DNA from: Prorocentrum cordatum
Lineage: Eukaryota
DNA: 64,000 nt
Reading direction: 5' to 3'
Assembly (NCBI GenBank): GCA_963575745.1
Contig: CAUYUJ010000003.1
Location: forward strand, 248,001 to 312,000
Made by a program: the position numbers and the translations under genes
Shown: piece by piece, positions 8,056 through 63,500 of the stretch
How the letters are laid out: each line of letters begins with the position of its first letter
How positions within the stretch are numbered: the first letter of the stretch is position 1
The notes under the pieces: generated by a model
Told to the model about the DNA's origin: nothing
The model's database searches: none
Seen by the model: the letters and a program-made list of their open reading frames with translations, nothing else

Positions 8056-8815
8056 GGCTTCCAGGGGTGCCCTGCTGTTGCTGCGGATGAGCAGGGGGGG
8101 CGCCGAGGGCGGCGGCGGCGGCCGCCGCAGCCGCCGCGCCAGCGGCCTCGCCGCAGGCGGCCGCAGGGGCGGCCGCGGCGGGCGGCCCCGGGCCCCGCCG
8201 CCCGCCGCCGCCGGGGGGCCGGCAACGGCGGCAGCAGCGGCCGCCGCGCCAGCGGCCGACGCGCCGGCCACGGCGCCGCCGGCCGCCGCCGCCACCGGAT
8301 GGGATCCGGCGGCGGCGGCAGTCACCGCGGCGGCGGCGGCGGCCGCCGCGCAGGAGCAGGCGGCCGCCGCGGCCCACAGGCCGGCGGCAGCCGCCGCGGC
8401 GGCGGCCTCGGCGGCAGCGCCCGCGGCGTCGGCGGCGCCGCCAGCGCGCGCGGCAGCCGCGGCGCCTGCGGCGCCAGCGGTTCCGCGCCCACGCGCCAGC
8501 GCCCCAGGGCCTCTCGGGCGGCCTCGGCGGCAGCGCACGCGGCGCTGGCGGCGCAGCGGCGCCGCGGCGCCGGCGGCGCCGGCGGCAACCGCGGCGCCAG
8601 CCGCGCGCGCGGCAGCCGCGGCGCCGACGGCACCAGGCGCCCGCAGCGCCAGCAGCGAGCACCGCGCGCCCCCAGGCGAGCCGCCGCTGCCGCCGCCGCC
8701 GCGACGCCGGGGACTCCATCAGGCCCGGCGGCAGCGCGGCGGGACGGCTCCACCCAGGCCACGCAGGCCAACCTCGAGCCCCAACCCCAGGGGAAGGAGC
8801 GCCCCCGGGCAATGG

Positions 8816-8835
8816 CTTGAGCCAGAGGCTACGGA
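8816..8835 (-). other. Degenerate dinoflagellate spliced-leader relic
   Basis: Minus strand tccgtagcctctggctcaag versus tccgtagccattttggctcaag; followed by ccattg, which resembles the start of a second relic. Confidence 0.7.
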
Positions 8836-16020: not shown

Positions 16021-16087
16021 TCCCCTGCTGTCGTTGTCGCTGCCCTCCACGTGTGCTCATAGAGAAGCAGGAGGAGGGAAAAAGGGA

Positions 16088-16103
16088 GGAGAAGGAGGAG
16101 GAG
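16088..16103 (+). repeat. Left copy of candidate 16-bp target-site duplication of LINE-A (ggagaaggaggaggag)
   Basis: Identical to 23905-23920, including the gaa interruption of the GGA run; low complexity limits certainty. Confidence 0.7.
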
Positions 16104-16134
16104 ACCAGCGTACCCAGAGGTCAGCTCCCCGCGC

Positions 16135-19100
16135 CTAGCACGGCGCCTGAGGCAGCATGGGCACGCCTCCTGTCGAAGCTGTTGTAGCTGAGGCCGCCGA
16201 CGCTGCAGCCCATGATGTGCAGCGGATAGCCGTCGAATTTATATCATTCTTATTCAGAGGATGCTGAGTGCAGGGGGGAGCGAGAACGCAAGAAGGGACC
16301 GAGACGAGACGCAGAGAGCAGTGAGGACAGTGCCGAGAGCGTGCAGGTGAATCACGAACACGCCTTGAAAAGGAAAGGGACGAGAGAGAGACCCTCATCC
16401 AACAAGGGGCACTCTCCGCGCCGTGCGTGGGGCCGGGGAGCAACGGTGCGAGGGTCACTAACGGCGCGCCGCCGGGCAGTCCCCACTCGCACCGCGCCCC
16501 CCGTTGGGAAGACCACCTACGCCTGTACTTCCGCCCACTATGCAGGTGCCACGGGCTCGGGCGCCTGAGGAAAATGGGCAACAGGAGCCTTTTCCGACGG
16601 CACTCACACACATAGGGCAATCTGAGGGTGCCCCCAACTCCTGTACCAGGACTCGTACCAATAGAAGAAGAAAGAGTAGCACTGCATGACCATGACGACG
16701 AAATTCTCGTCGGAGGCGAAATCGAGGAGGAGGGTCCCGCCATCAGCGACGGACAGGGCGCAAACGAAGGGGCAGCAGCCGTCGAACACGGCCAGGTCGG
16801 GGAAAACGAGCACGGAGTAGTAGCGAAGAGAGAGGCGATCCGTGTCCACAACGGAGAAGCTCGTGACGACGGCGTAACTCTCCGAGACGGCGCAACTCTC
16901 GAGGATGGCGTGCAGCTCTCGAAGACGGCGCAACTCTCGTTGACGGAGACACTCTCGAAGACGGCGCAACCCTCGAAGACGGCGCAACTCACCATGACGG
17001 GGCAACACTCGACGTCGGCGCAATTCACGAAGAAGGCGCAATTCTCGATGTCTGAGCCCTTATTTCCATCAGAGGCGGTCGACCTCCGCACAAGAGACGA
17101 GATCTCGCAACTTACTCCAGAGCCCTTATTTAGAACAGAGGCGGTCGACCTCCGAACTCGAGACACAGGCTCGCAACTTACTCCAGAGCCCTTATTTAAA
17201 ACAGAGGCGGTCGACCTCCGAACTCGAGACGCAAGCTCACAACTTACTCCAGAGCCGTTATTTCCATCAGAGGCGGTCGACCTCCGCGTTCTAACGCCAG
17301 TGGCCGCAGGGCTCGAGGAGCACCCTGCGATCGAGACCTGGAGGAGGAAAGAGGCATGGTCAACGTCACCATCACCATCGGCGGCATCGCCATCATCGGG
17401 ATCCACTGCTGAGACGAGTGAGGCAAAGTAGTGCACCGACCCGTTGGCAGCAACGATGGGCAGGGACTCATCTCCATTGCTGTCCACAAGGAAGTCACGA
17501 ATACGGTGTGGTGCAGCGGGTCCCAAGTATTGCCTCATCTCTCTGCGAATCTCACGAAGGGCTTGGAAATGTCGATCCACCATCTCTTCCCAGAGCCCGT
17601 GCCGCGTCAAGGAGTTACGCGGGTCATTCAGCCACCGAAAGTAATCTACAGTATTGAGGCGCCCCTCGGTAGAGGTGTCCCAGGCAACCATGCAGATATG
17701 ACGAGCGAGTTCGTCGAGAGCACCACTCCAACCAGACGAATCCACCCATTCCATCGCCTCAAATTTGGCACGTACGTATGGGATGCACCACATCAACCAG
17801 TCGGCACGGCCGCTCTCGGAGTCATCCAAGCGCAAGATCCAGCGTGTAGCCCTTGGTGCAATACGTTCGCCGAAGACAACAGGTGTAGCATGCTCCACAG
17901 AGGAAGAATGTGGATGGCCCGCCAGACGCAGGATGTGAGTACTCGGTGACGGCGTCGACTTCGACGAGGTGGCATCGTCCAGACACCGCAACTGTTCAGG
18001 GAGAGAAGGGTCCTCACGAACGGGAAGCCCACCAGCACGAAGGCGTTCGACACGCCTGATGGTCGCACGATATTCACGTTCAAGCCGAGTAACATCCGCC
18101 TCGCATGCAGCTGGGACAGACATCGACGCTGCATGGACCGCGGAGAGCGCCACCGTGGCGGCAAGCGGCCATGGGAACATGGATGCCGCAGGTCGCGGCG
18201 AGGTGGCTGCGGGAGCGGACGCCCGCCCGTTGACGCCCTGCCTTGAGGGCAGGGCCTCGCACTGAGCCAAAGCGCCAGCAGGAATGGGCACAGGAGACAC
18301 TGGATGGGGACCAGGTTGGCCAGCTTCATCAGCGCTATGTATCACATCGTCGTCACACGGGGTGGGAGGGACCAGGTCAGGGATGGGGGCCGCAGCATCT
18401 GAACTCAAACAGGAGGTGGACGATGAGGTGAGCACATCCCACTGAGGCTGCCTTCGGCGGATCGTCTGGACAGCGGGAGGAGGTTCCCACCGTTTCAATT
18501 TGGCTGAAGGCCTGGCCAGACGAGAAGTGCGGACGGCGGCCTCAACATAACCACGCAACTGACGGGGAGTCGACACTAGAGCACCTTGCCGAGCATAGTT
18601 GAAGACCTGGTAATAGACATAGAGAGCTTCGAAGTGGTCAGGGTGGGGGTGGGTAAGGCCAAGACGCTGAGCCAGGGGGCGAGGCAGGGCACGCTGTAGA
18701 CCTTTGCAGACTGCCAGGTACAATTTAGGGCAGCGTAGATAATGTTGCAGCCGATCAGGGCCAGGGCATCCGAAACGACAGCGAAGTTTGCCCCTCGGGT
18801 GGATAATCCTATGTGATGTCAGCCATCCATGCCCCCAAGTCCGTAAGGCTGCCATCGCCCAGCTTTGCGGAACCAATGCCAAAAGCTCCTGAATAGCGGG
18901 CCAGTGGATCAGGTTGAGGAAGGGGAGGTAAGCTGTGAATAACGGGGTTAAGTGGCGAATCAGCATGGCAAGTAGAGGTTTGTGCGTACACATGTTCTGA
19001 CCCAACGAGCGGGCAGCAGCACGTTGCAGCTTGGGCCTTCGTGTCGTAACCTGAGCTTCCTCACGCATGGCAGAGCGGGCAGCGACGAGTAGGGGCTCTT

Positions 19101-22100
19101 GAGACCTCACGTGGACCAGCTCAAGGTGTTCAACGAACGCAGGGGATTTCCAGAACGATGGATAAACACGGGAGCGATCCACAGCAGCCAAGGGGATATC
19201 ATCAAACTTCCCTTCCACCACCTCTCTGTGCCAAAGAGAAGCCATTTGTCGCAGTAGCCGTAAGTATTCCTCAAAGCCCTGGAAGGTGTGAAAAGCAGCA
19301 CGTAGGTGAGCTGCAGTAGCATGGGCAGCCCACGATGGAATCTGAGGACCACCCCAGGCCGGGAGCTCCAGGATCGATTCGTTCGAAAAGAGGCCAAGAG
19401 GAGCACGGAGAACTTGGGCGATGGCACCACGCTCAATGGGAAGGAACCATTCGGGCATAGGGAGGAATTGGGCTACATACGCCAAACAGGGGTAGACCCG
19501 CGTGCGGTACAAGATACAATTCGTACAGACTGACGCAACCCCACGTCCCAACATCCGAGAGCGAGATCGTGCCTTCATAAGCGGGCCCCTCCAGTTCATG
19601 TCGACCGTCGCATCTGGGCCCAAGATCATCCCAAGATAAAGCAACCACCCCTCAACGGCAAAGCCTGACCAGTCACTCGCGATAGAAGCCAGCTGGGTCT
19701 GGGTCATGGTTTTCAGGGTTTCTGTCATGCGGCCGACGAGAGGGACCAGGGTGCACTTGCTGATCTTAATCTTGAGGCCCGCAATCTTTTCCATGACACC
19801 GAGGACCCGCACCAGGATGCGCAGAGAGGCTAGCTCATACAGGACAGCGCCTAGATCATCGGCACAGGCACGGCATATCCCCAACTGACGTTGCTCAATA
19901 CTCCGCTCGAGGTCGGCCAACATGGGGGAGGAGGCGAGAGCGTACAAAGACCCCGAGAGACCACAGCCTTGGATGATGCCCGAGCGGATCCAGAAGATGG
20001 TCGAGTAGCATCCCCCATCCAGGACCACACCTTCAACAGCCAAATACATCCAGCCCACAAAAGCGAGAATCTCGGCGGGGAGCCCAAGAGAGCCCAATAG
20101 CTGTAGCAGGAAGGACTGCGACAAGCTCGGGAAGGCCTGCCCGTAGTCGAACCCGACGAGGACAGGGTAACGACGCACAGCTAGGGGATGTTGCGATGCA
20201 AGCCGTGCATGGACATCCAGCTCAAGCACGTTGTAGCAAAAATTTCGTCCTCTAATGAAGCCTCTCTGGGAAGCAGGTGCAACGGCTTGGACGACAGGCT
20301 CGAGGACCCTGTTCATGACCGAGCTCAGGATCTTAACGTCGGTGTTACGCAGCCCCAGGACCCGTATCTTATCGGGAGACCGAGAACAAACCCCAGACGG
20401 CAGATCTGAGTCATCAGCACCTTTGGGGAGGAACGCCTGGAGGGTGACGCTGGCAGAGGCAAACAACGACTGACCTTGGCATAGCCATCCGAACATTCTG
20501 GCCAGGTGCTGGGCGCCGTAGTCGCACGCCGACCAGGCCGCATAAGGCAGCCCGTCGACACCAGGAGCAGAGTGACGAGCACGCCTGAGAACCTTACGAA
20601 ACATTGGGGTCAGAGGACAGTGCAGGTCGATGTCAGAGGCCTTGGTGAGGAACCTATCGAGGTACATCTGGGTCATGACAGGGTGGGGCTCTTTCTTGGA
20701 GAAGACAGGGGTCCAGTAGGCCGCCAGGGCCGCAGTGCGTTCCCGAACCTCAGAGATGGGGCCCTCAGGAGTATTGACCGCGGACAGTATCAGGCGCTTC
20801 GAAAACGGGGCCCATATGGAGGCCTTCCTTTCCATAGCTCGCAAGAGCGTGGCCGAATGAGGCCGCCAGGCAGATGAGGAGCCTGAAGGAGCACGATCAG
20901 CAGCAGCAGCAGCAAGCTCTTTTTCGAAGACCAGCCGATGTACTCCAGCGGCCCACTGCTCGAAGGACGGGGCGTGGCGCAGCGAGACGACCTGGCCGTC
21001 GACCATCAGGGCGTCGGCGGCGTGCTGGGAGGTCTCGATGAGCTTGAGGGCAAGGGCAGCGTCTTGACGCCATACCGCTCGTGCTATCCCACGAGCAACC
21101 AGCTGAAGCGTCCCAGGCAGGTCAGGGGCCGAGAAGAAGAGGATGTCGCGGGCCTCCCTGGCGGCCTCCTTCATCATGTACTTGTAGTGCTCTGTAGCCA
21201 CCGGTGGGCTCCATCGGAGCAGATCCTCATCACCATCAGCAACCATTCCTCGGAGTCGGCGCTGGAAAGCAACAGAGGTGAAGATGTGCTTGGGGATGGG
21301 TCGCTCAGCAGCGGGACGCACACCCCGAAGACGCAGCCGAATCGAGAGAGCAGCATGATCCGAGATGCCCATGGAGCACAGGTGCTCAGGCGTGTCCACG
21401 GTGTTAACCTCAGTCATGAGCTGACACATCATCCAGCCTGTGGCAGAACAGAAGAAGCGGTCGATGATGTTGATGGAATTGGTGAACTTGCAGAAATGGG
21501 TCGCCGCTTCGGAGTTAATCTCCATCATCTTGCCAAGTGTAGCCGCCCAGATTGGAGCATGTACTTTATGATCATGAGTCAACTGGCGCTGTACTCCAGT
21601 AGGTCGGTGAAAGATGAGAGAAGAATCGTAACTGTAGTTGAGATCCCCCAAGACAACCACAAAGTACGAGAGTGGGTCATCAGCAGCGCGACGAAGAGCA
21701 CAATCGATCTGCTCACAGACAGATTGTACCTCCCCCTTGGTCAAGCCGTGATTGTGAACGTTGAAGATCACCAGCTGTGTCTGCCCAAGTGCTACATCAA
21801 CACGAAGCACCCTGCCTCTGATCAGAGGCACCGCACAGCTACTGACCGAAGTGGATGAGAAAGGAGGAAGAATGACTGCAACTCCCCCAGAGCCGCGGAC
21901 AACCTCGCCGTCGTCATCTTCACAAAAGCTACTGTGGACAATGGCCGTGGAGGAAAGCCTGGCCACAAAGTCGTTCAGCTCAAATCGATCTGCATGCACT
22001 TCTTGGAGAGCCAAGATGGATCGCCCAGGTTGAAGTTTGCTTAGGTAAGATAGCTTAGGCGAGGCTTTCGCCCCACCAAATTGGAGAAGAGCGCGTGCAT

Positions 22101-22167
22101 TCCAAGTCATGAATGTGAGGCTGGCTGTGATCTCTCCGCCGACCTGCCCCACTGGAAGCACAAACAT
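16135..22167 (-). CDS. LINE-A ORF2: APE endonuclease, reverse transcriptase, Cys/His motif and long C-terminal extension (2010 aa from ATG 22167; frame open upstream to 23793)
   Basis: APE motifs MTWNARAL, LQEVH, LGDLN, IDRFF, SDHAAL. RT motifs APGVDG, QRGFIRGR, FDYGQAFPSL, GIIQGCGLS, CADD (19855-19866), YLGMILG. Cys/His motif CRFGCPGPDRLQHYLRC. Start codon uncertain. Confidence 0.93.
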   Translation of the reverse strand: MFVLPVGQVGGEITASLTFMTWNARALLQFGGAKASPKLSYLSKLQPGRSILALQEVHADRFELNDFVARLSSTAIVHSSFCEDDDGEVVRGSGGVAVILPPFSSTSVSSCAVPLIRGRVLRVDVALGQTQLVIFNVHNHGLTKGEVQSVCEQIDCALRRAADDPLSYFVVVLGDLNYSYDSSLIFHRPTGVQRQLTHDHKVHAPIWAATLGKMMEINSEAATHFCKFTNSINIIDRFFCSATGWMMCQLMTEVNTVDTPEHLCSMGISDHAALSIRLRLRGVRPAAERPIPKHIFTSVAFQRRLRGMVADGDEDLLRWSPPVATEHYKYMMKEAAREARDILFFSAPDLPGTLQLVARGIARAVWRQDAALALKLIETSQHAADALMVDGQVVSLRHAPSFEQWAAGVHRLVFEKELAAAAADRAPSGSSSAWRPHSATLLRAMERKASIWAPFSKRLILSAVNTPEGPISEVRERTAALAAYWTPVFSKKEPHPVMTQMYLDRFLTKASDIDLHCPLTPMFRKVLRRARHSAPGVDGLPYAAWSACDYGAQHLARMFGWLCQGQSLFASASVTLQAFLPKGADDSDLPSGVCSRSPDKIRVLGLRNTDVKILSSVMNRVLEPVVQAVAPASQRGFIRGRNFCYNVLELDVHARLASQHPLAVRRYPVLVGFDYGQAFPSLSQSFLLQLLGSLGLPAEILAFVGWMYLAVEGVVLDGGCYSTIFWIRSGIIQGCGLSGSLYALASSPMLADLERSIEQRQLGICRACADDLGAVLYELASLRILVRVLGVMEKIAGLKIKISKCTLVPLVGRMTETLKTMTQTQLASIASDWSGFAVEGWLLYLGMILGPDATVDMNWRGPLMKARSRSRMLGRGVASVCTNCILYRTRVYPCLAYVAQFLPMPEWFLPIERGAIAQVLRAPLGLFSNESILELPAWGGPQIPSWAAHATAAHLRAAFHTFQGFEEYLRLLRQMASLWHREVVEGKFDDIPLAAVDRSRVYPSFWKSPAFVEHLELVHVRSQEPLLVAARSAMREEAQVTTRRPKLQRAAARSLGQNMCTHKPLLAMLIRHLTPLFTAYLPFLNLIHWPAIQELLALVPQSWAMAALRTWGHGWLTSHRIIHPRGKLRCRFGCPGPDRLQHYLRCPKLYLAVCKGLQRALPRPLAQRLGLTHPHPDHFEALYVYYQVFNYARQGALVSTPRQLRGYVEAAVRTSRLARPSAKLKRWEPPPAVQTIRRRQPQWDVLTSSSTSCLSSDAAAPIPDLVPPTPCDDDVIHSADEAGQPGPHPVSPVPIPAGALAQCEALPSRQGVNGRASAPAATSPRPAASMFPWPLAATVALSAVHAASMSVPAACEADVTRLEREYRATIRRVERLRAGGLPVREDPSLPEQLRCLDDATSSKSTPSPSTHILRLAGHPHSSSVEHATPVVFGERIAPRATRWILRLDDSESGRADWLMWCIPYVRAKFEAMEWVDSSGWSGALDELARHICMVAWDTSTEGRLNTVDYFRWLNDPRNSLTRHGLWEEMVDRHFQALREIRREMRQYLGPAAPHRIRDFLVDSNGDESLPIVAANGSVHYFASLVSAVDPDDGDAADGDGDVDHASFLLQVSIAGCSSSPAATGVRTRRSTASDGNNGSGVSCELASRVRRSTASVLNKGSGVSCEPVSRVRRSTASVLNKGSGVSCEISSLVRRSTASDGNKGSDIENCAFFVNCADVECCPVMVSCAVFEGCAVFESVSVNESCAVFESCTPSSRVAPSRRVTPSSRASPLWTRIASLFATTPCSFSPTWPCSTAAAPSFAPCPSLMAGPSSSISPPTRISSSWSCSATLSSSIGTSPGTGVGGTLRLPYVCECRRKRLLLPIFLRRPSPWHLHSGRKYRRRWSSQRGARCEWGLPGGAPLVTLAPLLPGPTHGAESAPCWMRVSLSSLSFSRRVRDSPARSRHCPHCSLRLVSVPSCVLAPPCTQHPLNKNDINSTAIRCTSWAAASAASATTASTGGVPMLPQAPC
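17054..17288. repeat. 66-bp tandem repeat (~3.5 copies) inside LINE-A ORF2, with adjacent 18-bp-period repeats at about 16870-17045
   Basis: Units start at 17054, 17120, 17186 and 17252. Confidence 0.92.
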
Positions 22168-22180
22168 ATCAGTGATGGCG

Positions 22181-23740
22181 TCAAAGACACCACTGGGTGG
22201 CCGACGGCGCGGCGGTGATGTTCCGAATGGCCTCCTGGAGGTCACGACGGTCCAGGCCGAGGGCGCGGATCCCCACGTCGTTCCAAGAGAGCTCAGGGGG
22301 TTCATCTCCTGGCCGGGGGACAAGCCGCAGGATGTCGGTGTAGTCAGACTTGAGAACACTCCGCTCCCGATCAACAAACCACTTTCTCTGACTGTCGAGC
22401 TCCATGAGGGAAGAACGGACCTTACGAAGGAGCATCTCACCACGAACCTGTTTCGGCGACTTGTCAGGACCAAAGTGAAGACGGGCTGGGTCCGCACCTT
22501 GAGCTGGGCACTGGAAGACCCGCCATGCTCCGTCCGACTTGAGGTTAGCGAGGGCCTTTTGCACACGTCGGGAGGCCAGGCCGATCGGCCCAGAGAAGCA
22601 CACGGCAAACTTTTTGGCGGGGAGCGGCGTGAGGGCTTTGATCGTGTACGTGTCGTCCTCAGAGAAGTTGAGCTCGCCCATGAAGGAGTTGACCACCTCA
22701 CGGACGCCAGCCAGACCGACGAGCTTGGACGAGACCACAATGACCTGCGTCGGGTCGATCTCGCGGTCGAAACCAGGTGGGGCAGGGGGACGCGACGGAA
22801 GTTGTCGGTCCAGCTCACTCTGGCGGCGTAGCTCCTCGACCTGCTTCTGCAGCTCAGCCAGCTTGGTAGCCTGGGCCTCGATGTCCCGCTCAGTGTAGTC
22901 GACACGACGGGATAGGGCGTCATGCTGCTCCTGAAACTGGCGCTGCATGGTATCAAACTGCGGACGCACCGATGCCATGACCTGCTGATCAATGGAGGTG
23001 TGCTGCGAGGAAAGCTGCTTCTGAAGAGTGGCGAGCGTGGCAACGATGGGAGCGTTTGACTGCTGTACAGAATTGGTGATGGCCGTAGTAACGATATTGT
23101 CGAACTCATTGCGCAGCTGCATGAACCTCGCGGAGATGTCGGCATGGTAGAAGGCCCGAGTGAAGGCAGCATGCTCCTCCTCTTCGCCACAATCAGCAGC
23201 ACCACCAGCAGCAGCCTGAGCCCGCGGGGTGGCGCCCGCACCCGCCGCCGCGGCCCAGGGGTCGAAAAGCCTAGCAGCAGGGCCCTGCGGGGTGGCGTTC
23301 GGGTCGGGTCGCGCCTCCTGCGACGGGAAGGTAGCGGCCATCTCGAGCTCTGCAGCCACCTGTGCACGCTTGGAATCGTCCCATTCGTCCAAGGGAATAG
23401 CTTGAGCACCGCGAGATGCTCCCAGAGCCGCAGGGTCGGGGCCCCGATGCGAGGCTGCAACACCAGGAGACATAGGGACGTCCCCGCCAGCGCCACGAGC
23501 GCGGCCAGCACGGCGAGCACGGCGAGAGGGCTCAGGAGCAGGGCCAGCATTGCCGTGGGAGGAAGGCCGAGCGCGAGCTGCACGACGAGCACCACGGCTG
23601 CCACCGCTCCGAGAGGCAGAGCGGCGGGGTTCCTCAGAGGAATCACGGCCACCAGAGGAAGCAATCTCCGTATCAATATCTTCACCCCCATCGAGACGAT
23701 GCACGACATGGTGTGGGCGGTCGCAGGCGGCAGGGCCCAT
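22181..23740 (-). CDS. LINE-A ORF1 (519 aa), probable RNA-binding/chaperone protein
   Basis: First ATG after the SL. R/S-rich N-terminus, coiled-coil-like segment (LSRRVDYTERDIEAQATKLAELQKQVEELRRQ) and a globular-looking C-terminal part. Stop lies 13 nt before the ORF2 ATG. Confidence 0.85.
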   Translation of the reverse strand: MGPAACDRPHHVVHRLDGGEDIDTEIASSGGRDSSEEPRRSASRSGGSRGARRAARARPSSHGNAGPAPEPSRRARRAGRARGAGGDVPMSPGVAASHRGPDPAALGASRGAQAIPLDEWDDSKRAQVAAELEMAATFPSQEARPDPNATPQGPAARLFDPWAAAAGAGATPRAQAAAGGAADCGEEEEHAAFTRAFYHADISARFMQLRNEFDNIVTTAITNSVQQSNAPIVATLATLQKQLSSQHTSIDQQVMASVRPQFDTMQRQFQEQHDALSRRVDYTERDIEAQATKLAELQKQVEELRRQSELDRQLPSRPPAPPGFDREIDPTQVIVVSSKLVGLAGVREVVNSFMGELNFSEDDTYTIKALTPLPAKKFAVCFSGPIGLASRRVQKALANLKSDGAWRVFQCPAQGADPARLHFGPDKSPKQVRGEMLLRKVRSSLMELDSQRKWFVDRERSVLKSDYTDILRLVPRPGDEPPELSWNDVGIRALGLDRRDLQEAIRNITAAPSATQWCL

Positions 23741-23882
23741 GGCGGCTCAGCTCGCGTCGTTGTAGCCAAAATTGGGAGCGTGCTGTGGCGCACGACAGGA
23801 AGGAGAGAGGCGTCCTGGCCTCGGAAGGTTCGGGCCTCCCTGTCGCCTGCGACAAGGCTGAAGCCCCAGGGCAGGTTTCAAC

Positions 23883-23903
23883 CTTGAGCCAAAATGGCTA
23901 CGG
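23883..23903 (-). other. Perfect dinoflagellate spliced-leader copy (CCGTAGCCATTTTGGCTCAAG)
   Basis: Plus strand cttgagccaaaatggctacgg is the exact reverse complement of DinoSL positions 2-22. Confidence 0.97.
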
Positions 23904-23904
23904 G

Positions 23905-23946
23905 GGAGAAGGAGGAGGAGGAGGAGGAGGAGGAGGAGGAGGAGGA
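23905..23946. repeat. (GGA)n tract containing the right copy of the candidate TSD (23905-23920)
   Basis: ggagaaggaggaggag matches 16088-16103. Confidence 0.8.
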
Positions 23947-25302
23947 TGGGGAAGAGAGGGACGGGGAGGAGGAGCGTGTTGCCCCCTGAACAGCAATTGC
24001 GCTCAGGGTAGTTTGCTCCCTGTGGTGCGGACAAAAGAGAGACAGGGTATTGCACGGGGGGAATAGAGAGCCAGCTCAAATAGCTGGCTTCTCTGGCGCC
24101 CCACAGCGTAGGAGGGGGCCTGTGTATCGAAAGGCTGGCCGGGCAGCGGGGCAGAAACCAGCTACGTGCAATGCGTGTTGGAGCACTCCTTTACTGAGTC
24201 CCCCCTTCCGTCCGACTTGAGCGGTGGAAAAGGGGGTTAAGGGCGATAAGAGTAGGCGTGGCAACCAGCCCATCATCGCCCCCCCAGCGGTCTCACGCAG
24301 CCGATGCGGATACGTACCCAAAAACGTATGGCCGCAGTAACGTTGGCCATCCTGGTGCCAGATCTGGAACAAACGCCGCGAAAAAAACATCGAACGATGG
24401 TTGTTTAATGACATATTGTGATTAACAAAAGGCCCCACTGGGGTTGATGAACAGACCCCGCGGGGCGCGGTACTTTTTTTTTCAAAAAAAAATAATCACG
24501 CGTGCCAGGGGGAAGGAGGAGAGGGGAGGGCGAGGGGGGATAAGAAGGAGAAGGAGGAAGACGAGGAAAGAGAGGCACGAGGAGGAGCAGGAGGAGGAGG
24601 AGGAGGACGAGGAGGGGAAGGAGGAGGATGAGGAGAAAGAGGACTACCCGCTTTGCTCGGGTCGGACGGAAGGCTGGGAAAGGAAAGGGGGAGTTGCAAA
24701 GCCTGCTGCGCGCAGCTGGTTTCGGTCGCCCCGCCGAAAGGCCATTCCTCGACGCATGCCGCTTTCGGCGCAAGGAGGCGTTTGGATAATCGGCGACGTG
24801 AGGTTCTTGGCAAATGCCCCCTCTGCTGCGCCCCACTTTCGTCCAGCCCGCTTCGCCCGCGGGCCCGCATCGGCTCGACAGACAGAGGCGCCCTGGCTCG
24901 CCCTTGCCCCCAAACAACCCCCCCTTGCCCCTCGTTGGCGGCAGGGCGTCGGCGCCAATCGCCGGCGCCGTTCCGTGGATGTTCAATATGGCGGGCGCCT
25001 GCCCGCGATTCGCCCGAGCGGGGGAACTGTCTTTAAAACGCGCGCCCCTTGCATATTTGTTAATCACAAGCTGACATTCTGGCTCTTCGCTGCGTTGTTC
25101 GGGTTGCGCACCAAAGCCTAGGTTCTTTCCCTCCTACCAGCCCCCCCTCTGGACAATCTGCGGCGAGGCGGCCAAATGCGCCGCGCTCTCCCCCGGGGTG
25201 TTCGGCCTTCACCCCCGCCCGCGGCCGCCAAGACTGGGCCAGATCCATCGGCCGTCGGCGGTATCATGCCCAGAAGTTTACAAGACAGGGAGGATCCTAC
25301 TC

Positions 25303-41905: not shown

Positions 41906-43684
41906 CCAATCGCCGTCGCATGGGTTTTGCAAACCAAGTTGCGGGTGGGTAGGTGGGATGTCTGCGCGGGCAGTGGGGTTGACAACTTCAAGTTCGGCAC
42001 CGTGAACTGCGCCGCATATTTTGCACCGCGTAGATGCAGCACATCGAACGCACCACGTAGATTGCACAACATATATTCTCCTCTGTAAGAGAAAAATGAA
42101 CTCTACCCCTTCCCCGGAAATAACGATACCCTTTATCGCACTGCAAGTTCACATGATTCAGCCCCATCGTCCATCCAAAATATGAATTCATACGATCCCA
42201 GCCAAACCGGTATCACTCCCCCCCGCCATCCTCAGCAAAAAACTATGCGCGCACTCTCGCTTATCAAAAATTATCCCGGCAAAGCAACCTAACAGCCATG
42301 TGTAGGAGCATCCCTGGGTTGAACAGCATCTCGACGAAAAGGCAGCTCTCCCCCCCCCTCCTCCTCCTCCTCCTCGTCCTCCTCCTCCTCCTCCTCCTCC
42401 TCCTCCTCCTCCTCCTCCTCCTCCTCCTCTCCTCCTCCTCCTCCTCCTCCTCCTCCTGGTAGTCCTCCCCCTCCCCTCCTCCTCCTCCTCCTCCTCTTCC
42501 TGGTCGTCCTCCTCCTCCTGGTCGTCCTCCTCCTCCTGCTCGTCCTCCTCCTCCTCCTGCTCGTCCTTCTTCTCCTGCTCCTCCTGCTCCTCGTCCTGCT
42601 CCTGCTCGTCCTCGTCCTCCTGGTCTTGCTCGTCCTCCTCCTCGTCGTGCTCTTGCCCCTGCTGAAAATGTGGCCCAGGAATGGGAGTTCTGGGAAGTCG
42701 AAGAGCACGAAGTTGCCTACAGTTGGCTACGGGCATTCAAAATGTGGCCCGGGAATGGAGTTCTGGGAACTCGAAGAGCACGAAGTGGCCTACAGTTGGC
42801 TCCGGGCATTCAAAATGTGGCCCGGGAATGGAGTTCTGGGAACTCGAAGAGCACGAAGTGGCCTACAGTTGGCTCCGGGCATTCAAAATGTGGCCCGGGA
42901 ATGGAGTTCTGGGGACTCGAAGACCACGAAGTGGCCTACAGTTGGCTCCGGGCATTCAAAATGTGGCCCGGGAATGGAGTTCTGGGAAGTCGAAGAGCAC
43001 GAAGTGGCCTGCAGTTGGCTCCGGGCATTCAGAATGTGGCCCGGGAATGGAGTTCTGGGAGGTCGAAGAGCACGAAGTGTGTGACTGTTGGCTTAAAACG
43101 ACTTCTGCGGCACCCTGTCCGGCACCCGCCCAGACCCCCCTGTGGAGTCATCTGCTGCTCTCTTTTGACCCCACTGGAAACCTATCAGAACAAGCTGTTA
43201 GGTAATCATAAGTTGTCAAGAGTCCCTTGCAAAAAAGGAACGAAGTGCACACGCGCGCGTCGTCGCGCGCGCATTCCGAAATCATTCAAGAACCCTCGGT
43301 TCCAGAAGGATTCCAACATCGAGCTCTCAAACAACATTCAAAACGCATGGTTTCGCAACGCTGATTTCCTAAAAAGTCCACGCGCGCGGTCATGCGAAAT
43401 CTACAAAAGACATAAGTTTTAAACCATTTTCAAAACGTATTACCAAACGGGCCTCGCGCGCGCGCATGTCGAAATCATTCGAACGCCCTTGCGCGTGCCG
43501 TCGCGAGAATCCGCTGCAGAAAAAAAAACGAAGTGCAAACGCGCGCGTCGTCGCGCGCGCATGCCGAAATCCTTCAAAAACCTTCGGTTCGGAAGGATGT
43601 CGAAATCGCGCGTCCAAGAAAATGCAAAAAAAAACAAGGTTTCACAACGCGGATGTTCAACAAAAGCGTGCGCGCGCGCCCTTG

Positions 43685-53930: not shown

Positions 53931-54030
53931 NNNNNNNNNNNNNNNNNNNNNNNNNNNNNNNNNNNNNNNNNNNNNNNNNNNNNNNNNNNNNNNNNNNNNN
54001 NNNNNNNNNNNNNNNNNNNNNNNNNNNNNN
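53931..54030. other. Assembly gap (100 N)
   Basis: Run of N; true length unknown. Confidence 1.
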
Positions 54031-57000
54031 AAGAGCGCGCGTACCTCGTGGAAGAGTTCACGCGCTTATAACGACAGGGCTGCCCACGCGGCCGCCCGCG
54101 CCTGCTTGACCTGTGCGCGGGTGGCAGGGGCGAGGCGCTGGGGGATGGGCTTCAGTTTGTGGTTGATGGCGAAAGCGAGCGCGAAGGTTTGTCGGGGTCG
54201 CAGCCGCCCGGCTTCCAACGCGCCATAGTCAGACCCACCCCTGGGCCCGAGCGGGCCCAGGGGCGCGCGGGGGGAAATGACGATTGGGGCGCAGCCGCGG
54301 CCCAAAAACATGGCACAATCTGAAGTGTGGAATGTCGTCAAAGGAATTGCGGCCTAGCCTACACTTCGCTTGGACGAGAACCTTCGCTCTGCCTCTCGTT
54401 GCCCATGCGGGAGTGCCGCCAGGAACGCGCTGGATCTGCAGGCGTGACGAATGCTGAATCCGAAGCCTCGGTGGCTCGTGTCTAGCTGCAGCCATCGCCG
54501 CCGCTCTCGGCGTCGGCGTGAACCTTGGGAGGGACAAGACGGGGGAAGGGGAGAGAAAGGAAAGCGGGCCAGGATCAGAGGAGGGCGGGGGGGGGGGGGG
54601 GAGGGAGGCACGCCTCTGAGCGATGCTGGGCGAGACTTTCCAGCGCGGCGAGCGCCGCCGCCCTGCCGGCGCACGCCGCAGAGGTCCATCGCTTACAGCG
54701 CGATCCTAGATGCGGCCGAGGACAGTGCTCCAGCGTCGATGCGCATGGCCTGCAGCGCGCAGCAAGCACGAAGGACCCATCATCTTCACGGGCCCGGGTG
54801 CGCGGAGCCAGCGAAGACAGCGAAGCTCGGCGAGAGCAAATGATGATGGCGGCGGCCTCAAGAGCTCGTGCAACGCATGCGCTTCTTCACTGAGGATGCG
54901 AGAGGAGAGGAGAAAGAACTGGGCAACGCACGACAGGCATGGGAGGATGAGCATACGATAGAGACGGACACTAGCGTCGGTGGGGGCGCGCGCGCCTGCC
55001 GCCAACCGGCACCGAGACCGCTATTCCTGGCCTCCAGATTCGAGTTGATGTTTTAGGTCAGCCTTTGGGCTGATTTGGATGCTTCGATATTGGTGGTGGG
55101 GGGGCCAGGAGCCGCGGCGGCCCGAAGCTGGTCAATCTCCGCGCCAGCGAGAACCTTCCAGGTCGGGGCCAGACGATACTTCTCAGGCTGCAGATCAAGG
55201 CAGGCAAGGTGGGAGGCCGATTCGACAGGAGGATGGAAGAGGGGCAGGAGGGGGAGAAGTCGGGGAGGGAAGCCCCCGCATCGTCGGCACACGCGCCAGC
55301 GGTGAGGAGACGGGGAGGGGAGGAGACCACTCGCTCCAGCCGCTCCTCTCGGGAGCCCTGAGGCGGCGGGGAAAGCGCTAGCTGGCAAGATCCCCGGGCG
55401 CAGGTAGCAGCAAGGCGGCGACGTATCGGGCCCGCCCCCAGGGCCCCGAAAGTTCCACTCAGCGGGCAGCTCTGGGGGACCCCGCTGGAAATATCAAAGA
55501 GCAGATGCCTCTCAGAGTCATCTTTGTGGAATCCCGCAGCATCTGATCCCAGGTCCGAAATCTCGTGTAGATTGCCTCGGGGCATGTTTCATCTTCGCAA
55601 GACAGCCTGGAGCCACTGCTGAGACATACTAGGAAAGACAGCGCGTATATCATATGATATGATGCACAGGCGACGAGCAGCAGCATCATTCCCTATGCTG
55701 CTACGGCGGGCCTCGGCATCTACATTTATGATGTGCGACCCGAAGTTTCGGCCGTTGATGAATCCTTGCTGAAGTTCGTGAACATGCTGCTTTGCTGCTC
55801 TAGCTAGGTGTGAGTTGGCGGTCTGGGCAAAGGCTCACCTGCCGGCATGCCTTAAACTGAGAGGACGGAGGCAGCTGGCATCCCCCGCGCATTCAGTGAG
55901 ATAGTGAGGGTCTTCACTTTTGGGGACGAAGGCAAAGTTGGAATGGTTTAAACCTTGGACAGGGCCCACCCCCGAGAAAATCCGCAACAACACCTCATGT
56001 AGCTCATCTGTGGCAGCTGGAACGGCCCCCCACGCTGCGCGGGGGAGACGGCCGGGGCAAGGGGAGGAGGCCCTCCGGCGTTTTAATGCTCTGGCGAGAT
56101 CTGCCGGGGAGGGGAGGTGTGGTCGTTCGGAGGAATTAACGGCAGGTGGGTGACGAAATATTCAGACATCGCAACCTCAGAACTAGTGGCCTCGGCGAAG
56201 ATCGGCCGCTAGTGCCGTTTGAGGATGTGGGCCATGGGCGACGGGTCGCGCTCGACAGCGATGGGGCCGCCCTGCGCGTGCTTCAGGCCACTGAGCAAAA
56301 GACGCCGCCAACCGGGATTCCACGCCAATGCTTGCCACGTTGAAGTCTGCTGGATTTCCATGTGCTCCGGCACCTTAGTTGGTGAATCGTTGCCTCGGGC
56401 AGCCCGCGGACGGCGACCTGCGGCTGCAGCAGCCAGCTGCGCCACCTCATCGAACCGCTGCTGGTTGGCGAGCATCACCAGGTCGCGGCACTCGGCGGAG
56501 TCAGCGAAGTAGACCAGGCTGTCGTCGCCGACCCGCAGATATTGTTCGGCGAAGACAGGGCTGCCTCGAAGCCGATGAGCAAGCCGCGCGTCTTGGAGCC
56601 AGACCGCCCGAGCGATGGCCCGAAGCGTCACGCATGCGAGCTCCGCCGCCCCATTGCCGGCAGGCGGCATTCCTGCATCTCATCGCGGGCGATAGCAGCA
56701 GCTATGTGCATCAACTCGCCCAAGCGCGCCCACTTGCCACCGGCGTCGCATTCGCGGCGCCCGTCGGCGTCGATGCAGCGCTGGAGCACCTCGCGGAACC
56801 TCGGCAGCTTGAAGATGACGGCAAGGATCGGGCACGCGTCATGGCTTTGCGGCTTCGTCGGCGCCAGCTTCATCCTGATGATCGCATGGTCCGAGAGGGC
56901 CCGGTCAGAGAGCCGCGGGGCCTTCTGCGCCGCGTCGAGAGTTGTGTCGCAGTCAGTGATGAAGTGCGACCTCAGGGAGATGAAGACACGGTCGATGGTG

Positions 57001-59224
57001 CTGAGCGTCTCGGTGTTGCGGTTGTAGTGCGTCGGTAGTGGGCCTCCCAATTCAAACATCCCGCGCGCGAGCAGGTCGCGCCAAAAATGGTTCAGCCTGA
57101 GACGCCCTGCCATCCTGTCATCGCCGAGCCTGCCGCCGTTGAGGAAACATAAGGGATGGGTTGACAGCGTCGCTCGCATTGCGGTCGCAAGCAGCAAAAA
57201 AAGGGGCAAGTTCGTCTTGCCTCGCCCAGGGGACATTTTGAACCCATCGCTGACGCGTGGACTGCCGTTGAGAGCGAGAGACGCCGTAGTTGTGGACATT
57301 CAAGTATCGCACCTCCTTGTGAGTCGTGGGGTTTCGAACAGACACGCGTTGAATGCGACCAGGAACAGGAGCATGGTGCGCGAAGACAGGTTCATGTCCA
57401 GGCTGAAGTTGCTGGGCGATGTCTTCTGCGTGCCAGGCGAAAATGATAGCGGGGCCGCCCTCGCTGGAGCGGCTGTCATTCTCGACAGATTCCTCGGGGC
57501 AGCCAGAGTAGAACAATTTAACTGGTTCAGAAGCGTTGAGAAAGTGCGCTCATTGCCGCGCGTCCCCTACAGCAATATGACATGCCGAGAGTAGAGTAAG
57601 CGCTTGATCTGGAGAAACTAATGCAGGCGAATTTGGCGATTTAAACATCAAAGACCACGTGCGCTCCAACAAGCAACTCCAAGCTCGTGAGAATCTCCTC
57701 AATTTCCTTGGCAGCCGCCGTTTGCTAGGACAACGCCCATGCTGAAGTGCCCGCGCCCTGGAACTGTTGCTTGCCATTCCCCGCGGACGACTGGGCGTCG
57801 ATGCCGCGCTGCGCCGGCCCTTTAAGAGACCATGCGAGCTTGGTGGCTTCATTGGCGCCCTGGGGCTGAACTTCGGCGATGGGAACTGCGTCGGCGCGGA
57901 TAAGACCTCGAGCCCGCAGGGGTCGCCAATCGCGTAATCTGCGCGTGCCCGCTGAAGAATGCCCAACGGCCTCTTGCCCTGCAATTCGCGTCGAACTTGC
58001 TTTGGGGATTAGTCGGGGCTGGCATGGAGAGCGCCAGCGGCGCCGCTGACAGCTAGCGCCGCGAGGCGCATCCAGGCGCCGCCAGGGTGCTATAGGTGTT
58101 GCGCCAGCCGAACAGCCCGAGCAACACCAGGAGCGCCCCCGCGAAGATGCAGGTAGAACACCTTGCCAGGCGACTGGCCGCGGAAACAAAATTGGTCCGC
58201 TTACAAGCCCGCGCCCTGGATCCACTGCGCAAAAGCCGCTCATGATCTCCGTGTCGGCCGTCGGGCGGGCGCAGCCGATCCTGGAGATGCAGGGGTCGGG
58301 GGGTCTGTCGCGCGCGGCGAGCCGCGCGAGGTCCACGGCCCCGGCCTCGGCATCGCGAGTTTGGGCCAGCGAGCGCTGCGCCGCATGCATGCCGGGGCGA
58401 AGAGCGCCCTGCCGAGCCTCCATAGCAGCGGCGCGCTCCTGCAGCTGGCGAACCTCAGAGCCGCGAGTGTCCAGCCGGGCAGCCTGAGGCCGCAGGGGGC
58501 CCACCGCCGCGTCCCGCGCGTCGTTGCGCGCCTGGCCCATGATCGAGTTGACCCCAATGCGGACTCAAGCCGTCTGCTGCGTGAAGGCGGCAGCGACAGC
58601 GGCCACGATGAAGACAGCTGGCGACGCCGCGCCAGCGCCAGGGGCGGCAGCTGCAGGGCCCGCAGCGGCGCTCCAAGCGGCGGGCCAAGGATCAGTCAGC
58701 ACGGCCTTGGAGTGGGTCAGCAACGCGAGGTTCGCCCAGTTCGCCGTCGGGGAAGGTCGCCGCGAGCTCGGTGTGACGAGTCATGGCTGGCGCGAGAAAT
58801 GGATGCGCCTCCGCAGCGCCAGGGCCACGGTGGCCGCCGCGAGCATCAGAAGGAACGCTTGCACCGCGGCGCTGAGCTGGGAGTGGGGCGCGGCCACCAC
58901 GCCGAGAGCTCCCGCTGCAGGAACGCGACGATGAAACATCCGGATCTTGGCGACGACGGCGGCGCTGATCCTTTTTGCGGCGGCGGCGCGCAAGGCGGCC
59001 CCGAGCGGGGGGGGCCCTGCTGCTCCTGGAGGGGCCAGAGGCCCCATCGCTCGGCGCGTGCCGCGGGCGCCACAAACAAATGTGTAGGTAGTGGCGGCGT
59101 CGGAAGAGCGGCGCCTGCAGCCTCTGCGCGGGTCGCCGCATGCGCTCGCCGCGATCGCGAGAAACAAAAAGCCGCCGCGGGGCAGCTCGCCTCGAGCCAG
59201 CCCCTTGAGCCAAAATGGCCATGG
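54031..59224 (-). mobile_element. LINE-C: decayed relative of LINE-A with a 5' SL relic; 3' end lost in the gap
   Basis: Fragments matching LINE-A by eye: RDRPPDPCISRI (ORF1), GRIQRVSV..LNVHNYG, TIDRVF..LSDHAII, AIARAVWLQDA, SGVPQSCPLSG, ACADDAG, LPCLSCVAQF, CRLGRNSFDDIPHFRLC. Many frameshifts. Confidence 0.88.
59204..59224 (-). other. Spliced-leader relic (19/21 match) at the 5' end of LINE-C
   Basis: Minus strand ccatggccattttggctcaag; followed by gggctggctcgag, a possible second relic. Confidence 0.9.
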
Positions 59225-59230
59225 AAGAAT

Positions 59231-59261
<31 letters not shown>

Positions 59262-59514
59262 GAGGAGGGGGGGGATGAGGACAAGCTAGGTGCGCTCGCG
59301 TCATATCTGACATCCTACCCCCCCCCCCCCCATCCCTTACCATGGCGAAGACCCCCTCTCTCTCTCTAATCGCTCAGTCGGATGTCGAGCAGGGCAATGA
59401 TCCCGAAAGGGTACGCGACGCATTGTAGAGCGCGGCATGGCATGGCGTTGAAGAGCACCGAAAAGCGCAGTAGCAACCTAGCATTGCATTGAGTGCCGTG
59501 GCGTGGCGCGGAAA

Positions 59515-60590: not shown

Positions 60591-63500
60591 GGTGCGGCCA
60601 AAGATGGCCGCCCTTCGTGCTCAGCCACGAGGCCGGGCTGCCCGGGGCGGGCGCCCGTCGTCGTCGTACCTGTGGTCCCTGATGACGCGGTCGACGAAAA
60701 CAGCCCACTCCACGAGCTGCCGGTCGACCTCTTTCCTGTCGCCCAACGCCGTCGGCCACAGAAGCCGGCGTTGCAAACCATCATGGGGTCGCTGGCGCGG
60801 ACGGTGCCGGAAGCGGCTGCTCCCGCACTCCCACGCCACGTGTTCCCAGGTGCCCATCTCGACAGTGCACCACGGACACCGGCCGAGAACCAGGTCGCCC
60901 CTGTGGTAGTGTGCTGGGCTCACCACCGCGCCGGCGAAGACTCTCGCAGCTGCTGGTATCTCTTCCACAAGCTTGAGCATGCGCTTGTACCTGAGCGGAT
61001 CGTACTCGGCGTCGTCGCACGCCACCGTAGCCCGCCGGCTCCCTTTCATGAACTCCTGGAAATTGGAGAAACGCCAGGCTTCCCGAAGCAGGTGCGCCAC
61101 CTGTCCCGGCTCTCGCCACTCAGGGTGGTCTCGCCGGAGCGTGATGGTCTTCTCTGTTCCGTGGTGGCTCCACACCCACTCGTCCACGCACCGCCAGCCT
61201 GTCCACGCCAAGTGCTTTGTCAGTACGCCTGACCAGCCCGTGGTCTCCTTCCACGGCAGCTCCCCTGTGGGGTCGTTCCCTGCCAGGCCCTTAGCAATGG
61301 CGCGAACTACTCCAAGAATGGCCTCTTGCTGGCACCTGTACCGCACGTCAGAGCGATGTCCCAAAATCAACAACTTCAAGGGCCGCGGCGCGTGAATCGG
61401 AAAATCGATAGCTCTGTGCACACGGCTTTGAATCTGATTGGTGGCCGGGATGTTCGGCGTGTCGCAAACCCAGCCGTACTGAGCAGAAGCGAGAGGCCCG
61501 GCTTCCACCACCTGCTTCCTTTCTCTCGGCGGGAGTGGCAGAAGTGCTGCCTTGGCCGTCTGCTGGGAGGCCTTTTCGAGCCTCTTTATCTCCTTGCGGC
61601 ACTTCTTCCTCCTTTTCCCTCCCGTGATCTTCATGCCCAACACCTCCAGCTTGTCCGCCACGGCGTCTGGCGAGACATGTTTCTGAAGATTCCGGCGGCC
61701 AGCAGGGTCTCGGTGGCTCCACTGCTCCTTCAGGGCGTTTTCCTTGAGCCCCAGAGCAGCGCTCCAGGCTCGCCAAAGCTGCGCCGCGGCCAGGAGGTCC
61801 TCCAGGCGGCGCGCTGTCCACGTCCTGTCGTCGACGAAGACGGCAGTGGTGACGTTGGGCTCCCTCTCCTCCAGCTCCCGCAGCGGCCCGGCGAGCAGAC
61901 ATGTGAGCGCCAGCGGGCTCCACGGATCCCCCTGGGGGAGGGAAGTGCGCACTTCCTGCGCCTGCGGGTGCGTGATCCCGGCGAGTTGCATGTAGCGCTC
62001 CTGGTTTTCCCATTGCTGGGTCAGCATCGCCACGATGGCCTTCGGCATGCCCGCCTGCTGCAGCGCGACCGCGGCGCACGCGGGCTGCACTGTGTCGAAG
62101 CAGAGAGAAAAATCCCAAGATGTGGCGTATTCGCCCTGTTCCATTGCAACGATAATACTTTGGACAGCGTCGTTCACAGAAGCGCCCCTTTTGGCGCCGA
62201 AGGCACGCTCTGGCCACCACCGCCGCTGCCATTGCCTGCTGGCCGCGCTGTGGAGCCGGCTCCCTGCCCACAGCCGATGCCGGCAGCTGCTCACCGAGAT
62301 GGGTCGGACAGCTTCGGCCGGCAGTGCCTTGCCCTCGGCCACATCTTCTTTGGGCAATTGCGCTTGGCGCACTCTCTGCCACCCAGATGGGAGGGCGGCC
62401 ACTGTCTCGCAGAGATTGAAGAACTCAGCGACAGCCTCTGTGGCAAAGATCGCGTCCGCCACCTCCTCGCCGGTCCACCCGTCAGGGCCTGCGCTGCTTC
62501 CACGGATCTTGTCCTGTGCAGTCCGCACGTCTTCCTTCTCGAGCGGCGCCCACGCCTCTTCCTGGTGCCGCGGGCCCCACTCCGCCACCTTGGCTCGCCA
62601 TGCCGCTTCGGGAGGCAGCTCCCGGTCCCACACCTTGCGCCAGCGGTTGATCAGAAATCCCAGCGACTCCGGCATGGACTGCGCCGGTGCCTCCTCCCTG
62701 TCCTGCTCGTAGATCATGGTGTCTGGCGGGATGTGCCCCTGGAGCCAGCTGTGGGCCTTCCGGCGGGATGTCCTGAGGCTTTCCCGCCACCTCGCGAGCC
62801 TCTGCTCCTTGGCCCGGTCCCTCTCGGAGCGCAGCAGGCCCTCGAGCTCCACGATCTTGTCCTGCACAGCGTGGATCTGAGCCAAGGCGGTGTCCCCGGT
62901 CTGCACGAGGTACCGCTTCGCCTTCTCTCGGAGTCGCCTTGCCTCTGCCTCCCTGCCGGCGCCGCGCTGTTGCAGGTAGTCGAGGCGCCGTAGCCGAGCG
63001 AGGGCGTTGGCGAGCTGGCGCTCCCGGAAGGTGGCTTCCAGGCAGCTTGCGGCGCGTCCGTGCCGCACCCGCTCGAGCTGGACCTCGTTTTTCTGTAGCT
63101 TTTTGCGACCGTCCGAACCGGCTCTCTCCGGGTCCTCAGCGGCGCAATCCCACTCTGTGTCTGTGAGCATGGCACGAGCTTGGGCCATGCAGGTCTCCAT
63201 GGCGTGGCTGAGTTCCGCCCACTTCTGGTCAACCAGGCGGCGGGCCTCGCAGGACCCTGGTTCGACGCCATCTGCGGCCGCATTCATGCCGCTCTGCACG
63301 CGGTAATAACCCTGCGTGTTGTCCCACAGCTTGCTCGTGATGTCCACCCACTCTTCCTTGCTCGAGGCCGGCGGCATGGCGACCCCGCGGTGCTTCGCCA
63401 AGCGCCACTCCTCTACCTCCTCGCCCTCCATGCGGAAGTCGACAAGCATCTGCACGACGATGTGGTCGCTGATCGCGTCCTCGATCAGCTCGTGGCCCGT

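Follow-up and report, generated by a model that had tools for sequence, protein, structure and literature searches.

The window analyzed here, 64,000 nucleotides of Prorocentrum cordatum DNA (contig CAUYUJ010000003.1, positions 248,001 to 312,000), comes from a GC-rich, Prorocentrum-like host genome (63% G+C in the window) and contains a long interspersed nuclear element (LINE), here called LINE-A, that carries at its 5′ end a copy of the leader spliced onto dinoflagellate mRNAs (DinoSL, or SL). Positions are those of the window, and features lie on the minus strand unless stated otherwise. LINE-A (16104-23904) is an intact, recently active retrotransposon lacking long terminal repeats (non-LTR), of the apurinic/apyrimidinic endonuclease (APE) type, ≈7.8 kb long with two open reading frames (ORFs). 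ORF1 (22181-23740) starts with an ATG at 23740 and encodes 519 amino acids, arranged as an Arg/Ser-rich N terminus, a coiled-coil-like middle, and a C-terminal domain. A Pfam search assigned ORF1 to no family, and a protein search found two relatives; it is 90% identical to an NCBI entry listed as 'unnamed protein product, partial [Prorocentrum cordatum]'. After a spacer of 13 nt between the ORF1 stop (last base 22181) and an ATG at 22167, ORF2 (16135-22167) runs uninterrupted for 2010 amino acids to a stop at 16135. The protein search with ORF2 returned a single relative, P0003, at 30% identity.

ORF2 encodes both an APE-like endonuclease and a LINE-type reverse transcriptase (RT). The endonuclease domain (21421-22110; Pfam Exo_endo_phos, E 7.4e-6) lies N-terminal to the RT and scores 26.3 bits against a curated Pfam cut-off of 24.5, and the RT domain (19744-20376) matches RVT_1 with an E value of 1.3e-12. 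Among solved structures in the PDB, human LINE-1 ORF2p is the top match of the RT (E 3.5e-10), followed by R2 (1e-4), a ranking of affinity by PDB matches only that does not imply membership of the L1 clade. With both ORFs open and both domains above the Pfam cut-offs, the element is the intact LINE that a preliminary description of this locus had taken it to be. A Cys/His motif after the RT, CRFGC...H...C (18721-18780), was recognized by eye as a putative zinc knuckle. Farther downstream, the 3′ third of ORF2 contains two in-frame tandem arrays (16868-17286; 18 nt × 9.9 and 66 nt × 3.5). Because these periods are multiples of three and the frame stays open until 31 nt before the end of LINE-A, the tail of ORF2 is suggested to be genuinely long and repeat-bearing, rather than a long 3′ untranslated region (UTR). 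The 3′ UTR itself (16104-16134) comprises 31 nt; no poly(A) tail is present in the sequence at the 3′ end of LINE-A, and folding of the terminal 127 nt revealed nothing unusual (z 0.01). The ORF2 frame is also open upstream through all of ORF1, giving 2580 codons from stop to stop (16138-23877). The P. cordatum protein P0004 has an N terminus that fits an ORF2-type alternative frame and switches to the ORF1 frame near the residues EEWDD, a mismatch that reflects either a frameshift between copies near that point or a mixed gene model.

The 5′ UTR of LINE-A (23741-23882), 142 nt between the SL and the ORF1 ATG, is headed by a perfect DinoSL, CCGTAGCCATTTTGGCTCAAG (23883-23903), which corresponds to leader positions 2-22 with 21 of 21 bases matched (0 mismatches). 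The complete leader is quoted as DCCGUAGCCAUUUUGGCUCAAG, 22 nt (PMC5585692; papers cited by PMC number are represented throughout by excerpts). Position 1 is occupied by a single C (23904) that separates the leader from the direct repeat described below. Both direct reading and a script recovered the 21-nt leader 142 nt upstream of ORF1, as originally described. A search for DinoSL with up to three mismatches gave two matches in the window against 0.02 expected, and none of 100 shuffled sequences gave two. These two strong matches, found in the 128 kb of both strands, are both in the sense orientation at the 5′ sides of LINEs. In a semi-global scan they scored 42 and 34, and the maxima of 40 dinucleotide shuffles ranged from 18 to 28.

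The second strong match, TCCATGGCCATTTTGGCTCAAG (59204-59225), belongs to another element, LINE-B, and agrees with the leader at 20 of 22 bases, including the canonical T at position 1; over the 21-nt core it matches at 19 of 21, and 0 of 40 shuffles reach its score of 34. The body of LINE-B (54835-58170) was recognized by tblastn with the LINE-A proteins as ORF1-like pieces (58170-57797) and an ORF2-like region (57366-54835), with 27-35% amino acid identity to LINE-A. It is frameshifted, broken into several frames, and represents a decayed genomic copy; Pfam found nothing in any of its nine ORF pieces, and the external LINE protein P0003 also matches it (E 3e-17 and 3e-16). Measured from the SL, the conserved C-terminal domain of ORF1 lies 1263 nt away in LINE-A; the LINE-B distance is 1054 nt. 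LINE-A and LINE-B are the only two LINEs with a 5′ end inside the window, and each has its SL match in sense at its 5′ side. As far as can be told, two divergent LINEs start with the SL. Their 5′ regions can be aligned only across the (CTC)n tract, the SL, and a single G after it; the sequence beyond is unrelated. Upstream, the junctions read TTCTCC-C-SL in LINE-A and CCCCCCCCATTCT-T-SL in LINE-B; downstream, the LINE-A leader ends in CTCAAG followed by GTTGAAACC, with GT as the next dinucleotide, and the LINE-B leader is followed by GG. A constant SL ahead of diverged sequence fits a leader that would be supplied afresh by the host, rather than an inherited UTR segment, because the SL is retained at 21/21 and 19/21 although the LINE-A and LINE-B proteins are only 27-35% identical and the sequence after the SL cannot be aligned. 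On the 3′ side of LINE-B lie a 100-N scaffold gap (53931-54030) and then, in the minus-strand reading, a (CA)n tract (~53930-53866); because both fall between LINE-B and a further candidate element, LINE-D, the 3′ limit of LINE-B is uncertain.

Each of the two leaders follows a tract rich in pyrimidines. Over the 60 nt preceding the SL, the C+T content is 97% in LINE-A and 95% in LINE-B, where the (CTC)n/C-rich tract spans 59231-59290, and only 0.45% of minus-strand 60-nt windows reach 95%. Two weaker SL-like strings ending at 8816 and 1612, which are probably relics of host retrogenes, have upstream C+T contents of 39% and 54%. Among the 22 partly overlapping pyrimidine tracts called on the minus strand, three have an SL-like string in the 80 nt after them (scores 42, 34, and 20), as compared to 0 of 21 plus-strand tracts (top score 9). 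The 3′ flanks of LINE-A, LINE-B, and a third element, LINE-C, are pyrimidine-rich as well. Because pyrimidine tracts occur on the 5′ and the 3′ sides, as expected of a split tract, the simplest reading is that these LINEs insert into (CTC)n tracts and split them.

LINE-A is bracketed by a 16-nt direct repeat, CTCCTCCTCCTTCTCC, which is its candidate target-site duplication (TSD). A (CTC)n tract (23905-23974) closes with the 5′ copy (23905-23920), and the 3′ copy (16088-16103), followed by TCCCTTTTT, opens a pyrimidine-rich tract of ~45 nt (16060-16103). These copies sit exactly at both ends of the unique LINE-A sequence and constitute the longest direct repeat common to both flanks, where no rival TSD candidate was found outside the (CTC)n tract. 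The word makes up 3 of the 539 CT-only 16-mers on the minus strand, corresponding to a chance of ~0.6% for a match at both boundaries; this figure is informal, resting on a rough null that takes the word's share of CT-only 16-mers. No paralogous empty site of LINE-A is present within the window.

Other copies of the element were sought in public sequence data. Parts of the 5′ kilobase of LINE-A occur in 16 public-run rows from 10 studies, none of them listed as RNA, and contigs of four runs (X1, X2, X3, and X6), each from a separate study, were aligned to positions 17300-23935. In X1 (547 million letters), the summed contig depth, which is not equivalent to copy number, is ~100-185 across ORF2 as against 20-24 in the last 400 nt. 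The pattern fits a repeated family whose members are mostly 5′-truncated, and it agrees with the low divergence of P. cordatum LINEs indicated in the supplement of PMC10666404. One X1 contig (594 nt, depth 24.2) aligns from 23315 to 23897, and thus into the SL, with a single difference and 11 letters beyond the aligned part; if colinear, it ends ~5 nt upstream of the SL. Because the contig stops there, the repeated sequence probably ends at the SL, with copies diverging just beyond it. A contig from X3, a marine metagenome of an independent study, likewise reaches 23897. Searches of metagenome contigs with the ORF1 protein and a 26-nt 5′-UTR pattern returned no locus, and a search of viral contigs with ORF2 returned none.

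DinoSL is known to reach mRNA only by trans-splicing from the SL RNA, and its presence in DNA marks a reverse-transcribed mRNA (PMC12014239, PMC5585692, PMC7245778). Because trans-splicing is the only known route to the leader, the LINE transcript appears to have been processed like a host mRNA. We consider it probable, judging from the DNA sequence, that the LINE mRNA is SL trans-spliced, reverse-transcribed to its 5′ end, and inserted into (CTC)n tracts. On this account, LINE pre-mRNA would acquire the SL at its very 5′ end by trans-splicing, and target-primed reverse transcription would copy the SL-capped RNA to its end, with the first, cap-adjacent base alone copied unfaithfully in LINE-A. 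The new copy would then start with the SL, inside the TSD. That the leader came from reverse-transcribed LINE RNA rather than from an SL-gene target was the core proposal of the preliminary description, and it gains support from the LINE-B SL and from the lack of an SL-gene context. Its suggested comparison of the flanks with SL RNA gene arrays gave the same answer: both flanks are (CTC)n, the endonuclease is APE-type, and no Rfam family, including 5S rRNA, reaches threshold in the window (the presence of a DinoSL RNA model in Rfam was not checked). The 3′ flank of LINE-A in particular is (CTC)n and not the remainder of an SL gene. The added statement that the 5′ end is set in this way rather than by an internal promoter is something we infer, as a 5′ end formed by trans-splicing gives no indication of the transcription start.

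Two further steps are more speculative. Because there is no poly(A) and (CTC)n lies on both sides, reverse transcription might be primed when the (CUC)n 3′ end of a read-through RNA anneals to a nicked (GAG)n strand. In addition, the pyrimidine tract together with the AG of the copied SL could provide the following round with a suitable trans-splice acceptor. The SL relics of LINE-A and LINE-B are single and not stacked, so such re-use would require that the terminal AG of the relic be used. AG acceptors, and SL-like sequence at the exact trans-splice site, have been described in Amphidinium (PMC2488372). A more tentative and rather doubtful extension is that promoterless LINEs ride on host transcription, insert in sense into (CTC)n, replace their SL in each cycle, and share the machinery that makes SL-tagged retrogenes. 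Each copy would then land behind a ready polypyrimidine tract and bring the acceptor AG in its copied SL, and read-through plus trans-splicing would regenerate a capped, translatable LINE mRNA every cycle. One review tentatively credits dinoflagellate retroposition to LTR elements (PMC6050394).

Several observations weigh against copying of a trans-spliced LINE RNA to its end. Position 1 of the LINE-A SL is C, which is non-canonical given that D stands for U, A, or G; the deviation may be due to the base next to the cap or to a subsequent change. The (CTC)n upstream of the SL is common to LINE-A and LINE-B, which could mean that the template RNA began upstream of the leader. For LINE-B, a TSD was looked for and none was found, and its SL lies ~1 kb from the first recognizable LINE homology and was assigned by position and strand. 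The repeat around LINE-A, from which the exactness of the 5′ end is judged, is a (CTC)n-type microsatellite word that occurs five times in the window (three on the minus and two on the plus strand), which is rich in (CTC)n/(GAG)n. Among non-periodic CT-only 16-mers, 22 of 403 have an exact copy 4-12 kb downstream. A 20-mer in the LINE-A 3′ flank, CTCCTCCTCCTTCTCCTCCC, also follows the 3′ end of LINE-C, whose 3′ UTR enters a (CTC)n tract (~60036-59841) containing it; because of this recurrence, the CTCCTCCTCCTTCTCC word may be typical of the tracts that these LINEs occupy. The pair could therefore have arisen by chance or be part of a shared (CTC)n tail. Thus, the TSD of the preliminary description holds as to position, an exact 16-bp repeat at both boundaries and one base outside the SL, but as evidence for a TSD it is weaker than stated there, since the repeat is a low-complexity word. 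Finally, positions 23898-23935 were masked as repeat in the contig alignment, which places the SL/flank junction and the upstream sequence of other copies outside its view; three loose ends at these positions in X6 were dropped as probably false.

Some of these points are shared by an alternative in which the SL is an internal segment captured once, unspliced read-through templates start in the (CTC)n of the parent copy (a 5′ transduction), and the 16-mer is no TSD. It draws on the (CTC)n found directly upstream of the SL in both elements, on the 16-mer being a common microsatellite word, and on the X1 contig, which shares 4-5 nt upstream of the SL and, judged by its length, would fit CTC-type sequence in other copies. 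An inherited leader, however, should have aged with its surroundings, and the LINE-A SL is perfect in a family old enough for the sequence after the SL to be unalignable between LINE-A and LINE-B. The two upstream junctions also differ, the 3′ ends are flanked by pyrimidine tracts as split targets would be, and no alternative TSD lies outside the tract. We regard this alternative as unlikely. Lower still is the probability we give to template switching, in which the RT jumped from an SL-less LINE RNA to an SL RNA or to the 5′ end of an SL-capped mRNA. Chimeras of U6 and L1 are a precedent for 5′ ends made by template switching, and the GT after the LINE-A SL recalls the donor dinucleotide found after the exon of SL RNA genes (PMC6616646). 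A jump copies the 3′ part of the second template, however, such that a chimera with SL RNA should include the intron; moreover, the LINE-B SL is followed by GG, and the presence of exactly the exon in both elements would demand two identical, precise jumps.

Association by coincidence, with LINEs inserted beside SL relics of host retrogenes or into SL loci in the manner of CRE, SLACS, CZAR, and NeSL, appears very improbable. SL relics do exist elsewhere in the window, namely the probable host relics ending at 8816 and 1612, but the only two strong matches on either strand are both in sense at LINE 5′ sides. Targeting of SL genes is further opposed by an endonuclease that is APE-type and not restriction-like, by the lack of a 5S or other Rfam match, and by a 3′ flank with no SL-gene remainder. 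We assign the smallest probability, close to none, to an artefact in which cDNA-derived or chimeric sequence entered the assembly. Nothing specific points to it, beyond the existence of the scaffold gap at 53931-54030; both flanks are genomic microsatellite, contigs of separate studies (X1 and X3) carry the same 5′ UTR into the SL, and LINE-B is a decayed genomic copy.

Slamovits and Keeling reportedly described dinoflagellate retrogenes with a relict DinoSL in 2008. Such relics are an accepted mark of retroposed mRNAs in dinoflagellates (Song et al. 2017, PMC5585692; PMC12014239), and the Gene Ontology term 'RNA-dependent DNA replication' is enriched among genes that carry them (Song et al. 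2017, PMC5585692). LINE-A resembles these retrogenes in having a DNA-encoded SL at the 5′ end of a retroposed transcript, marking an mRNA intermediate, and differs in that the retroposed RNA is an autonomous LINE with its own endonuclease, RT, and flanking repeat. The SL relics of the LINEs are single and full-length, in contrast to the host relic at 1596-1632, a truncated and doubled copy of the kind that the excerpted papers report for retrogenes. In those excerpts, 'retrogenes' that encode an RT are treated as a sign of activity and not as SL-capped LINEs (PMC5585692, PMC12014239). Among dinoflagellate LINEs, SymbioLINE and SymbioLINE-Dnmt of the Symbiodiniaceae have TSDs along with conserved UTRs, and they lack a poly(A) tail (de Mendoza et al. 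2018, PMC5890265). Like SymbioLINE, LINE-A combines an ORF1 with an ORF2 bearing Exo_endo_phos and RVT_1 and lacks poly(A) (PMC5890265); unlike SymbioLINE-Dnmt, its ORF1 carries no DNA methyltransferase (DNMT). Neither PMC5890265 nor the supplement files consulted mention a spliced leader.

Of the trypanosome elements L1Tc and ingi, L1Tc defines its 5′ end with an internal promoter (Pr77) and a hepatitis delta virus-like ribozyme and gives unspliced transcripts (PMC1874656, PMC3185411). LINE-A is similar to these elements in that its host, too, uses SL trans-splicing universally and transcribes genes polycistronically, and, unlike L1Tc, it appears to use host trans-splicing for its 5′ end. Other non-LTR elements associated with SL sequence are CRE1/2, SLACS, and CZAR of trypanosomatids and NeSL-1 of nematodes, which use a restriction-like endonuclease and insert in the SL exon of SL RNA genes. 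In contrast, LINE-A is APE-type, its SL lies inside the element boundary, and its flanks are (CTC)n and not an SL gene; membership of the CRE/SLACS/CZAR/NeSL group is ruled out by the endonuclease and the flanks. Microsatellites are targets of other LINEs, such as Kibi at (TC)n, Koshi at (TTC)n, and Waldo. LINE-A is likened to these by its apparent insertion into simple repeats and the absence of poly(A), and its target would be (CTC)n.

We found no published statement that autonomous LINEs start with an SL in the full-text literature, with subscription papers and most supplements outside the search, and a specialist might half expect such a start given universal trans-splicing. A classic problem is how LINEs can produce full-length RNA fit for translation and yet not lose their promoter with every jump; the known answers are an internal promoter, a ribozyme, or transcription together with a target gene. 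If the trans-splicing explanation is true, a 5′ end made by host SL trans-splicing would be a further answer, suited to polycistronic hosts. It would also be a direct sign that a dinoflagellate LINE RT copies SL-capped RNA to its end, which is the activity needed for the thousands of SL-tagged dinoflagellate retrogenes. Some 'retrogenes' counted by their SL relics may themselves be LINEs, as the enrichment of 'RNA-dependent DNA replication' recalls (PMC5585692).

Beyond LINE-A and LINE-B, the window contains LINE-C, an RT-bearing ORF (60624-63998) of 1125 amino acids that is open to the window edge and matches RVT_1 with an E value of 1.5e-14. BLASTP detected no similarity between LINE-C and LINE-A. 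The 5′ end of LINE-C lies beyond the window, and the element is therefore not scorable for an SL. LINE-D, a candidate fourth element at ~53803 to 50863, shows first a C/T tract and then a degenerate SL-like string whose end is at 53781. An ATG follows at 53683, and after it come a motif that resembles a RanBP2 zinc finger (by eye), an ORF of coiled-coil-like character, and a 432-amino acid ORF bearing ADFN and SPHRP motifs. Its SL-like string, behind the pyrimidine tract, scores 20, which is noise level. The nearest ESM Atlas clusters of the 432-amino acid ORF carry Exo_endo_phos (score 0.89), which serves as a lead only; Pfam and BLAST searches of the candidate gave nothing, and its AlphaFold model (predicted local distance difference test score 38.6) was too poor for a structure search. 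With its SL score at noise and no Pfam or BLAST support, LINE-D was not counted as a further SL-bearing LINE.

The two weaker SL-like relics are TCCGTAGCCTCTGGCTCAAG (8796-8816) and TCCGCAGCCACTGGCTCAAG (1596-1632), whose scores, 28 and 24, fall at the upper end of the shuffle range. Both (8816, 1612) are preceded by CACCAG, and after TCCGCAGCCACTGGCTCAAG comes another incomplete copy, TCTGGCTCAAG. The two lie ~7.2 kb apart, within an apparent tandem duplication of a GC-rich unit. The minus strand holds each of the four SL-like relics and the three LINEs, in agreement with the unidirectional gene arrays reported in dinoflagellates (PMC11453091). A 73-nt tandem array of six copies (42602-43166) and several GTC/CTC-rich families that recur every 3.4-5.3 kb between 34000 and 44600 point to larger tandem duplications toward the middle of the window.

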